Position numbers and translations under genes: made by a program | Shown: positions 1-6,450 of the stretch, piece after piece | How positions within the stretch are numbered: the first letter of the stretch is position 1 | How the letters are laid out: the number at the start of each line of letters is the position of its first letter | DNA from: a virus | Lineage: Duplodnaviria; Heunggongvirae; Uroviricota; Caudoviricetes | DNA length: 6,450 nucleotides | Virus record (IMG/VR): IMGVR_UViG_2711768018_000010 | Strand: one strand, 5' to 3' | Notes under the pieces: generated by a model | What the model was told of the DNA's origin: nothing | Seen by the model: only the letters and a program-made list of their open reading frames with translations | Database searches by the model: none

Positions 1-69
1 TGTACTGGATTCGAACCAGTGACCGATTGCTTAGAAGGCAATTGCTCTGTCCGGCTGAGCTAACAACGC
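1..69 (-). tRNA. tRNA-Arg, anticodon UCU; 3' end truncated by the window edge
   Basis: Minus strand from 69 reads GCGTTGT-TA-GCTC-AGCCGGACA-GAGC-A-ATTGC-CTTCTAA-GCAAT-CGGTC-ACTGG-TTCGAAT-CCAGT-ACA. This gives a canonical cloverleaf: D stem GCTC/GAGC, anticodon stem ATTGC/GCAAT, T stem ACTGG/CCAGT, T loop TTCGAAT. The last 4 nt of the acceptor and the CCA lie beyond position 1. Confidence 0.85.
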
Positions 70-82
70 ATGATGCAGATAA

Positions 83-159
83 TGGACCGCCATCGGGGAC
101 TTGAACCCCGCGCAGCCAGCTTCGAAGGCTGGCGCTCTTTCCTGATGAGCTAATGGCGG
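83..159 (-). tRNA. tRNA-Arg, anticodon UCG, 77 nt with encoded CCA
   Basis: Minus strand 159 to 83 folds with a 7-bp acceptor stem (CCGCCAT/ATGGCGG), D stem GCTC/GAGC, anticodon stem CCAGC/GCTGG with loop CTTCGAA, T stem CGGGG/CCCCG with loop TTCAAGT, discriminator T and CCA. Confidence 0.85.
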
Positions 160-166
160 TATGTGA

Positions 167-243
167 TGGTGGCCCTTGCTGGATTTGAACCAGCGACCTG
201 GCGATTATGAGTCGCACTGGGTCATTTCCGATACGCCCTGCCT
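167..243 (-). tRNA. tRNA-like, anticodon CAU (Ile2/Met type, ileX/ileZ-like); only the 3' two-thirds is canonical, so possibly a pseudo-tRNA
   Basis: Minus strand 215 to 167 reads GCGA-CTCATAA-TCGC-CAGGTC-GCTGG-TTCAAAT-CCAGC-AAGGGCC-A-CCA, closely matching the 3' part of E. coli ileX as I recall it. The 5' side (243 to 216) has no GGCCCTT acceptor complement and no D stem. Confidence 0.45.
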
Positions 244-332
244 GCTGACAGGCTTTCATCACATCTGAAAATATAGCACCCTGACTGATACTGTAGTACC
301 TAAGGTTCCAGAAACTGTGATGTATCCGGCAC

Positions 333-355
333 AGAAAAGCCCCTCCGGAGAGGGC
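333..355 (-). terminator. Candidate intrinsic terminator between the methylase/gap region and the tRNA cluster
   Basis: Minus-strand RNA GCCCUCUCCGGAGGGGC forms a GC-rich stem with a one-nucleotide bulge and is followed by UUUUCU. Hand-folded only. Confidence 0.4.
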
Positions 356-544
356 TGGAGAGTGGCGCTATGTGCCATTGCATGATGCCGGGTGCCTCCC
401 GGTGAATTCAGTACCAGCACCTGAATCCGCGATTATCCCATATACCTACTCGCTGATTGCCCCTCCGCACAGGGGGATTCACCATGCCAGTTTCTTTTAA
501 CAAACTCCCCGCAAAACAGACAACTGTCAACCGTCTGAATTGTG

Positions 545-794
545 NNNNNNNNNNNNNNNNNNNNNNNNNNNNNNNNNNNNNNNNNNNNNNNNNNNNNNNN
601 NNNNNNNNNNNNNNNNNNNNNNNNNNNNNNNNNNNNNNNNNNNNNNNNNNNNNNNNNNNNNNNNNNNNNNNNNNNNNNNNNNNNNNNNNNNNNNNNNNNN
701 NNNNNNNNNNNNNNNNNNNNNNNNNNNNNNNNNNNNNNNNNNNNNNNNNNNNNNNNNNNNNNNNNNNNNNNNNNNNNNNNNNNNNNNNNNNNNN
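545..794. other. Run of 250 N (assembly gap or masked sequence)
   Basis: Uninterrupted n characters. Every ORF-track translation crossing it (X residues) is unsupported. Confidence 0.95.
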
Positions 795-2231: not shown

Positions 2232-2260
2232 TCATAAAAAACCCGCTCGGCGGCGGGTTG
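2232..2260 (-). terminator. tR'-like intrinsic terminator downstream of the late promoter
   Basis: Minus-strand RNA CCCGC-cgccga-GCGGG is followed by UUUUUUAU, about 68 nt downstream of the predicted PR' start site. Confidence 0.75.
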
Positions 2261-2294
2261 TAGAAACTCTTCTAACGTCAGGCATAAAACGCCC

Positions 2295-2334
2295 ATCGTT
2301 ATAACGAATTTACCACAGATTCCGGAAAAATCAA
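2295..2334 (-). promoter_or_regulatory. Lambda-like late promoter PR' with sigma70-dependent pause element (qut region)
   Basis: Minus strand reads TTGATT (-35, 2334-2329), 16-nt spacer, TGgTAAATT (extended -10, 2315-2307), cgttat, then AACGATGGG (2300-2292). As I recall lambda PR', it has the same TAAATT -10 and the same AACGATGGG pause-inducing element about 7 nt downstream. Confidence 0.7.
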
Positions 2335-4672: not shown

Positions 4673-4954
4673 TTATCCAGTGACGGTAGTCGAGGCTAAG
4701 GGCTTTTTTAACCTCGCATCCGCGCCTGCGGTAACACTGAATGAGCCATTCGGCCTGTTCTTCAGTGCATGGGGGATGCTGGTACCAATCAGATTTAAAT
4801 GCGTGAGAGCGCCGCCCGTGCCTGCTGGCAAAGACGGCTGAATTATCAGAATTGTGTAGTCTGGAAGGCAGTGGCTGACAATAGCGCCATTCTCAACGCG
4901 CACAGTATAGAGGCCATCTTCACTAAAAATTTCACGTAATTCTTCGATTTTCAT
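4673..4954 (-). CDS. Hypothetical small protein (about 93 aa from ATG 4954; the ORF track uses TTG 4957)
   Basis: ATG at 4954 is preceded by GGAAGGA (SD-like). The N-terminal half (MKIEELREIFSEDGLYTVRVENGAIVSHC...) looks protein-like; the C-terminal half is compositionally odd, so the true extent is uncertain. It occupies the position of rem in Qin. Confidence 0.45.
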   Translation of the reverse strand: MKIEELREIFSEDGLYTVRVENGAIVSHCLPDYTILIIQPSLPAGTGGALTHLNLIGTSIPHALKNRPNGSFSVTAGADARLKKPLASTTVTG

Positions 4955-5174: not shown

Positions 5175-5330
5175 TTACTCCTCAGGTTCGTAAGCTGTGA
5201 AGACAGCGACCTCCGTCTGGCCGGTTCGAATTCGTACCTCGCAGAGGTCTTTCCTCGTTACCAGTGCCGTCACTATGACGGTTAAACAGATGACGATCAG
5301 GGCGATTAACATCGCCTTTTGCTGCTTCAT
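5175..5330 (-). CDS. hokD: Hok-family type I toxin (51 aa), HokD/RelF-like
   Basis: MKQQKAMLIALIVICLTVIVTALVTRKDLCEVRIRTGQTEVAVFTAYEPEE matches K-12 HokD (RelF) as I recall it and has the Hok single transmembrane helix. ATG at 5330 lies 9 nt after AAGGAG. Confidence 0.85.
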   Translation of the reverse strand: MKQQKAMLIALIVICLTVIVTALVTRKDLCEVRIRTGQTEVAVFTAYEPEE

Positions 5331-5387
5331 AGCCTGCTTCTCCTTGCCTTTCGGCACGTAAGAGGCTAACCTAGATTTGCCGTTCAT
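5175..5387 (-). CDS. mok-like in-frame upstream reading frame (70 codons) overlapping hok
   Basis: An in-frame ATG at 5387 (GAGG 8 nt upstream) extends Hok by 19 residues (MNGKSRLASYVPKGKEKQA). In hok/mok loci, as I recall the K-12 annotation, mok is an N-terminally extended frame sharing the hok stop (mokC 69 aa versus hokC 50 aa). Confidence 0.5.
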   Translation of the reverse strand: MNGKSRLASYVPKGKEKQAMKQQKAMLIALIVICLTVIVTALVTRKDLCEVRIRTGQTEVAVFTAYEPEE

Positions 5388-5621
5388 AGATTGAGCCTCA
5401 GATTAATGTTAAGCGTCTTGCCGGACGCGTAATGTTAACTGGGGCTTTTCTCTATCTGCCTTTTGGTGTTCATGCCTGAGACAGATAGCCTCAAGCACCC
5501 GCTGCAATTCTACTTAACTCTCCTTTTCCCGCAAACCGTTTTTATCCCCAGCGGCAAATCGAATACACCACCAGCGCCACCGCCATCGCAATTCCTACCG
5601 TTGTTAATGCTTCAGGCCAGG

Positions 5622-6140: not shown

Positions 6141-6450
6141 TTAACCCGCAGTGCTTTCAACTGATGAGGGGAACAAAATCTTTTCATCAAACCCTGCATT
6201 CATATCATGAACAGCAACACACCAATCCATCGACGAACGATTATCAAGAGCCTCCATGATTTCATCCATGCGGCGTAGGTCATACAGGTAAATGCTTTTA
6301 TCGCCAATGGTGTAAAAGCCAATTTTTTTCGGTGATGGATGAGGTGTACTGGCAATAGCGGACACTACCATTTGTTCTTTTTTTAAGCAGCCATCTGATG
6401 ATATTTTTCCCTGAAGGCTGCCGGGGAGATATTCCCCAGACGAGAGTGAC
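6141..6450 (-). CDS. Hypothetical protein, probably 5'-partial (reading frame open to the right window edge)
   Basis: The ORF track starts it at ATG 6371 (76 aa), but that ATG has no SD and the same frame stays open with no stop up to position 6450. The C-terminus is ...FPSSVESTAG with TAA at 6143-6141 overlapping the SD of the 55-aa ORF. Confidence 0.5.
   Translation of the reverse strand, partial: SLSSGEYLPGSLQGKISSDGCLKKEQMVVSAIASTPHPSPKKIGFYTIGDKSIYLYDLRRMDEIMEALDNRSSMDWCVAVHDMNAGFDEKILFPSSVESTAG

Follow-up and report, generated by a model that had tools for sequence, protein, structure and literature searches.

A Stx2-phage-type ileZ-argN-argO tRNA cassette, very probably in a decayed, stx-negative lambdoid prophage of Shigella sonnei

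The window analyzed here is a 6,450-nucleotide stretch of viral DNA (IMG/VR record IMGVR_UViG_2711768018_000010), with a cluster of tRNA-type genes at its left edge. Comparative analysis indicates with high confidence that this cluster is the known ileZ-argN-argO cassette, a self-contained unit carried by a degraded, IS-riddled, stx-negative lambdoid prophage of Shigella sonnei next to ompW. Small RNA, esterase, and lysis genes would follow it downstream, and its role may be that of codon supply. The cassette is already known: more than half of the complete E. coli genomes carry it, and its position beside stx2 was described long ago. The names ileZ, argN, and argO reportedly go back to Plunkett et al. 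in 1999 and Schmidt et al. in 1997. The initial annotation of this DNA correctly recognized a known element, but erred in three details: what it took for the first tRNA is only a fragment, the signals next to the tRNAs are those of an sRNA module, and the layout is specific to the window. The features are listed in Table 1.

Table 1. Features of the window (L004 is the S. sonnei reference locus used for coordinates).
Feature	Position	Strand	Basis or remark
tRNA-Arg(UCU), argO-type	1..69	-	69 of 77 nt in the window; 3' end lost at the window edge
tRNA-Arg(UCG), argN-type, intact	83..159	-	ARAGORN; Rfam 58 bits
3' 49 nt of ileZ-type tRNA(CAU)	167..215	-	anticodon arm, variable loop, T arm, 3' acceptor strand, CCA
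Breakpoint	215..216	.	L004 13120 fused directly to L004 12521 (BLAST blocks)
sRNA module	216..544	-	downstream of the tRNA cassette in all references; 100% to L004 12792-13120
STnc100-family sRNA	327..516	-	Rfam RF02076, 123.6 bits, model positions 1-206
250-base N run (assembly gap or mask)	545..794	.	interrupts the methylase gene
N6/N4 DNA methyltransferase, first 324 codons	795..1767	-	Pfam PF01555, 123.7 bits; 352 aa in references
Lambda-like PR' with pause element and tR'	2233..2334	-	sequence, terminator scan, alignment with lambda 44504-44629
Lambda-type antiterminator Q, 273 aa	2340..3161	-	Pfam PF03589, 179.2 bits against a cut-off of 26.7

The Q protein occurs with exactly the same sequence in thousands of assemblies. 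The ten longest of these exact-Q loci, all in complete, IS-rich chromosomes of 4.5-5.0 Mb, were used as the reference set; one of them, HE616528 (L008), is taken by us to be Shigella sonnei 53G. Window 6450-795 shares 99.97% identity with the S. sonnei complete genomes (2 mismatches in 5,656 nt). The two SNPs, at 2303 and 5133, are both outside called genes. At 4866|4867, in the Rem-gene region 5' of DUF968, the window and most S. sonnei genomes do not contain 250 nt that are found in L008, L011, and L012. At the right end, window 6340-6450 (111 nt) is the end of an IS3-family element (transposase, HTH_Tnp_1/rve domains), which flanks the region on both sides, in inverted orientation, in the complete S. 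sonnei genomes. Since the distance between these IS copies is close to the window length, the window appears to be a whole draft contig or scaffold.

Three co-oriented tRNA genes (CAU-like, Arg UCG, and Arg UCU) had been claimed, with the window ending inside the last one. Both Arg tRNAs, their anticodons, and their common orientation were confirmed, far beyond chance. The Rfam tRNA model RF00005 (gathering score 29) gave 58.0 bits (E 5.6e-12) on 86-159(-), with a complete cloverleaf, and 57.1 bits (E 9.7e-12) on 1-69(-), with the anticodon UCU; the latter was flagged as 3'-truncated by the window end, as had been claimed. The expectation that tRNA software would call both Arg genes was borne out by Rfam, which placed both above the gathering score, but by ARAGORN for UCG only: tRNA-Arg(tcg) at 83-159(-) was its sole call in the whole window. 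The argN-type tRNA has 100% identity to L004 12577-12653, and is the only tRNA of the cassette that is certainly intact within the window. Window 1-69 equals L004 12667-12735, and the complete tRNA-Arg(UCU) there spans 12667-12743.

The claim of a third gene did not hold. RF00005 gave only 23.7 bits on the CAU-like element at 170-237(-), where the acceptor and D arms do not pair, and ARAGORN made no call on this element in the window. Alignment showed that the 5' 27 nt are absent from the ileZ-type fragment, and that the 5' acceptor strand and D arm are swapped for unrelated sequence. Because these 27 nt are missing, the element as it stands is a pseudo-tRNA and not a tRNA gene. BLAST against the ten near-identical genomes gave the same division: window 215-1 is the cassette from nucleotide 28 of tRNA-Ile(CAU) onward, and window 243-216 is the tail of another block, which is not tRNA. 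The counterpart tRNA(CAU) in the references is complete (72.5 bits). The CAU, UCG, and UCU trio of the window is made up of one 49-nt fragment, one intact gene, and one edge-cut gene, respectively; all three are complete in the near-identical genomes.

The likeness to the Stx-phage cluster was well founded. Window 1-215 has 96.3-97.2% identity, over 215 nt, to the ileZ-argN-argO cassettes of Stx2 phages such as VT2-Sakai, PA28, Stx2-86, and F723; across the Stx2-phage and E. coli cassette matches together, the identity ranges from 96 to 99%. Three phage-borne tRNA genes have been described in 933W, VT2-Sakai, Stx2-II, and Stx2-86 (PMC4631060), and two tRNA-Arg genes with one tRNA-Met(CAU) gene were reported beside stx2a (PMC7946995). 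Most of the phage-database matches of the cassette are Stx2 phages. Cassette matches were also found in 3,102 of 5,426 complete E. coli genomes (57%), at a median of 2 and a maximum of 20 places per genome. The carriers include non-STEC, commensal, and ExPEC strains (UTI89, S88, and ATCC 11775).

The cassette has its own signals in the intact relatives. A promoter-like element (TTGAAG/TTGCAG-17-TATTAT) ends 9 nt 5' of the tRNA-Ile(CAU), and a terminator (GGCTCGC-TTTT-GCGGGCC followed by T8) lies 3' of the third tRNA. The former is one of only two promoter-like sites, on either strand, in the 900-bp stretch scanned in L004. Both elements are present in L004, the relative L001, phage Nil3, and VT2-Sakai; their window equivalents are under the N run or beyond the edge. 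A five-way alignment showed that promoter and terminator are kept from S. sonnei to VT2-Sakai, with divergence only past the T run.

A lambda-type Q and PR' had been claimed upstream of the tRNAs, and the comparison with lambda supports this. Besides its PF03589 match, the Q protein aligns end to end, by residues 1-113 and 182-273, with lambda Q (PDB 7UBM chain Q; E 3.5e-41). A sub-threshold match to the DnaJ CXXCXGXG zinc finger was also seen at Q residues 171-218. PR' lies six bases past the Q stop codon (TTGATT-16-TAAATT-CGTTAT-AACGATGGG). Its -10 TAAATT and the sigma-dependent pause element AACGATGGG (2300-2292) are identical to those of lambda and equally spaced. About 40 nt beyond the pause element, tR' forms a strong terminator, with a stem at 2259-2240 and then a T run. 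The SNP at 2303 (T in the window, C in the ten S. sonnei genomes) falls between the PR' -10 and the pause element. Q and PR' are on the tRNA strand, 2.1 kb upstream of the tRNAs; a 65-codon ORF with its own terminator, and then the methylase gene, are located in between. Elsewhere in the window, a hok/sok-type module was identified at 5175-5500(-), consisting of a Hok/Gef ORF (PF01848, 5175-5387) and a sok RNA (RF01794, 5325-5500, 112 bits).

The order of the left blocks differs from that of all reference genomes. Window 544-216 and window 215-1 each show 100% identity to L004, at 12792-13120 and 12521-12735, respectively; thus the order of the two blocks is reversed relative to the genomes. 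L004 has the methylase gene (11395-12453), tRNA(CAU) (12494-12569), Arg(UCG) (12577-12653), and Arg(UCU) (12667-12743), then the hairpin-T8 terminator, and then the block equal to window 544-216. This canonical order, with the cassette before the sRNA block, is found in the S. sonnei genomes, E. coli BEC1 and TUM10008, phage Nil3, and an IMG/VR draft contig. None of the reference genomes and collections searched has the order of the window (250 N, sRNA block, and shortened cassette). Where the window has 250 N, a run that the initial annotation leaves unmentioned, the references have 424 nt, comprising the 3' end of the methylase gene, the promoter of the cassette, all of the Ile-Arg-Arg cassette, and the terminator. 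The number 250 is both the span of the intact cassette and the sum of three reference pieces (153+49+48 nt); these are indistinguishable coincidences from which no inference is drawn.

The sRNA module accounts for the signals that had been assigned to the tRNAs. Its STnc100-family sRNA scored far above the RF02076 gathering score of 47 (Table 1), and a terminator scan placed the STnc100 terminator at 338-356. In stx-negative prophages, the interval from the cassette to the esterase gene holds tandem STnc100 units, two strong and one weak. In L001 they occupy 7300-7490, 7529-7702, and 7768-7977, of which 7529-7702 is the weak third unit (30.1 bits), with its own terminator at 7673-7696. The extended -10 motif TGcTATATT, which had been proposed to drive the tRNAs independently of PR', does exist at 278-270(-), within the start of a degenerate further STnc100-like unit. 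However, it is 3' of the cassette in every reference. Because it comes after the STnc100 terminator in all references, the motif is part of the sRNA module, and in the canonical order it cannot drive the tRNAs. The apparent arrangement of promoter and terminator followed by tRNAs at 1-544 exists only in this window. The initial annotation may have taken the STnc100 terminator and its flanks for PR'/tR'-type signals acting on the tRNAs. A TTGACA at about 523-528 (within 500-540) was also considered as PR' and rejected: no acceptable -10 follows it, and the block is an STnc100-type sRNA, which in VT2-Sakai lies downstream of stx2B and not after Q.

The junction at 215|216 was searched for widely. 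It is missing from the 5,426 complete E. coli genomes; both junction halves are present in 237 of these, always as two pieces in the canonical order. No match was found among 50,697 phage records. An exact scan for the 41-nt junction gave none in the GTDB representative genomes, IMG/VR, or the JGI metagenomes, and a 22-nt junction pattern was likewise unmatched in IMG/VR. The 30-aa ORF across the junction is not on record in a protein look-up.

On balance we lean towards an artefact of short-read draft assembly or scaffolding, in which the IS-bounded region broke at repeats and the 329-nt and 215-nt pieces were misordered after an N gap; the true locus would then be canonical, with three intact tRNAs directly behind the methylase gene. 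The singularity of the junction is consistent with such an error, as is the run of exactly 250 N in place of 424 nt. The right end of the window stops 111 nt into the IS copy that bounds the region in the complete genomes, and the Q gene is on a contig of 5-10 kb in 1,580 of 2,286 index blocks, as a draft contig predicts. The left boundary of the 329-nt block is the natural start of the repeated STnc100 module. In our reading, the pieces lost (153 and 56 nt) against those kept (215 and 329 nt) could fit a loss of short pieces. Moreover, the IMG/VR draft contig L015 shares the SNP at 2303, yet has the canonical order. L015 is the only IMG/VR match for this SNP, and has only 97.5% identity to the window in the Q-methylase part; the SNP had no match in the GTDB representatives or the JGI metagenomes. 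What speaks against an artefact is the join itself: the pieces abut without N or shared k-mer, with at most 1-2 nt of microhomology, and De Bruijn assemblers normally need reads that span a junction.

A real, strain-specific rearrangement, which puts the 5'-truncated ileZ with argN-argO behind the first sRNA unit, is a serious but minority possibility. One possible form is a tandem duplication of a 600-bp unit (from nucleotide 28 of tRNA-Ile to L004 13120), and a further copy of the cassette might possibly lie under the N run. The junction is a clean end-to-start join of this 600-bp unit, which is the signature of a tandem duplication. The S. sonnei locus is also unstable: IS elements have inserted at L004 13188, and the argN of L013 contains an extra 1.3 kb. 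However, after a simple tandem duplication the methylase fragment and the sRNA block should be separated by 424 nt and not by 250. The junction is also absent from this locus in all ten complete S. sonnei genomes, and no collection that was searched contains it. It is rather unlikely that the junction is real and that argN and argO of this S. sonnei, placed behind a truncated ileZ and possibly as a tandem duplicate, could be read from the extended -10 TGcTATATT of the sRNA module. If the junction were real, the expression of the phage tRNAs would be rewired. The left 800 bases, with the N run and the out-of-order blocks, are unsuited to regulatory inference.

It is very improbable that the 49-nt tRNA-Ile fragment is an att-type duplication from an integrase with the tRNA 3' end as its target: such sites typically hold 3'-terminal tRNA pieces of about 45-50 nt, but the fragment here runs in perfect register into the remaining cassette, its other flank is the sRNA module and no element end, and neither the window nor the flanking 20 kb in its relatives has a called integrase gene.

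The verdict of a toxin-free cassette is independent of the choice between artefact and rearrangement. The initial annotation had left room for stxAB beyond the left edge. In VT2-Sakai, stx2A starts about 90 nt past argO. Past stx2B follow an STnc100 unit (L014 7631-7836, 207.7 bits), AsxR, the YjhS/NanS-p-like orf42, and the S-R genes. Since this single STnc100 unit comes just after stx2B, stx2AB fills the space from the cassette terminator to STnc100. The stx probe, which was compared by blastn with the S. sonnei and E. coli relatives, ran from the argO end to orf42 of VT2-Sakai. The relatives match this probe only at the terminator (7-40) and in the STnc100-to-esterase part (1373-1817); the stx2AB part (91-1331) had no blastn match in the ten S. 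sonnei genomes, which are 99.9-100% identical to the window, or in the E. coli relatives.

Downstream of the cassette, the relatives have one to three STnc100-type units, a DUF1737-SASA (NanS-p) esterase, a class II holin, and DUF1327. Most S. sonnei genomes also have an IS3-family insertion downstream of the cassette. Further IS copies are present, as well as a 56-aa ORF at the lysozyme position, which is probably a lysozyme remnant. As these relatives show sRNA, IS, esterase, and holin genes and no stx2AB, the locus represents the stx2 site in an "empty" form, within a decayed prophage by ompW. To judge from the near-identical genomes, degraded lysis genes rather than stx would lie to the left of position 1. 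This expectation carries some risk, because the local order of the window differs from that of all these genomes.

It is therefore hardly credible that the window comes from a Stx-converting prophage with stxAB just left of position 1. The match to the Stx2-phage cassettes, the position of stx2A in these phages, and the predominance of Stx2 phages among the phage matches are in its favor, but the near-identical genomes all have no stx at the locus. The backbone is also different: a lambda-type, 273-aa Q and a methylase gene precede the tRNAs here, whereas VT2-Sakai has a short Q directly upstream. The cassette is moreover common in complete E. coli genomes, including commensal and ExPEC strains. 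Likeness to the Stx-phage tRNA cassette is no marker for stx. The near-identical relatives of this locus are decayed, toxin-free remnants of S. sonnei prophages, and a flag as a potential Shiga-toxin locus is therefore unwarranted.

The known parts of the cassette suggest how it might work. In the lysogen, its own sigma-70-like promoter would allow transcription. After induction, Q-modified, terminator-resistant RNA polymerase from PR' might boost this transcription. The three tRNAs may supply decoding for AUA (CAU, with lysidine), AGA/AGG (UCU), and CGA/CGG (UCG). The benefit would concern codons that the prophage genes over-use and the host uses rarely (AUA, AGA/AGG, and CGG). In eight genes of the S. 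sonnei prophage, the usage per 1,000 codons is 12.2 for ATA, 6.1 for AGA, 3.0 for AGG, and 12.2 for CGG, about 2-3 times the E. coli averages. The CAU tRNA is assigned to Ile2 (lysidine) rather than Met on the basis of its PGAP annotation, and presumably resembles ileX; ARAGORN labels the complete reference CAU tRNA as Met. Codon compensation is the usual rationale for these phage tRNAs (PMC4631060, PMC7946995), but one comparison of lambdoid phages with and without them showed no difference in codon adaptation (PMC4631060). In L013 (CP022672), an insertion of about 1.3 kb (12641-13976) interrupts argN, with flanks that overlap by 13 nt. The decay of the locus, by this insertion and by the IS at L004 13188, speaks against strong selection on the cassette in S. 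sonnei.

Compared with known systems, the feature is closest in content to the cassette of the Stx2 phages (933W, VT2-Sakai/Sp5, Stx2-86, and PA28). The three tRNAs, their order, strand, and anticodons (CAU/UCG/UCU) are the same; the cassette is in the late region downstream of Q in both; and the intact relatives have the same 5' promoter-like element and 3' hairpin-T-run terminator. However, the Q here is of the lambda type, a small ORF and a DNA methylase gene are located between PR'/tR' and the cassette, the ileZ copy of the window is 5'-truncated, and the near-identical genomes are without stx. In comparison with the lambda Q/PR' system and its 6S-type tR', Q aligns over its full length, with an insertion of 68 residues at 114-181. 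A leader ending at tR' would fall well short of the lambda 6S RNA in length, and the lysis genes follow only after more than 4 kb, with morons (methylase, tRNAs, sRNAs, and esterase) in between. According to a 2026 preprint, the STnc100 family, which is related to PasD, is often located beside PF03589 Q genes and esterase genes in prophages of E. coli (bioRxiv 10.64898/2026.05.13.724894). Window 327-516 resembles these STnc100 (RF02076)/PasD prophage sRNAs by score, which is separate from the tRNA finding. The stx-negative prophages (UTI89, ATCC 11775, BEC1-S17-ESBL-09, and TUM10008, together with S. sonnei 53G and others) have 95-100% identity to the window. They share a 6.4-kb architecture with it, which includes hok/sok, DUF968, RusA, Q, orf65, methylase, cassette, STnc100, NanS-p esterase, and holin. 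The complete cassette precedes STnc100 in these relatives, whereas the window has the N run and the reversed block order.
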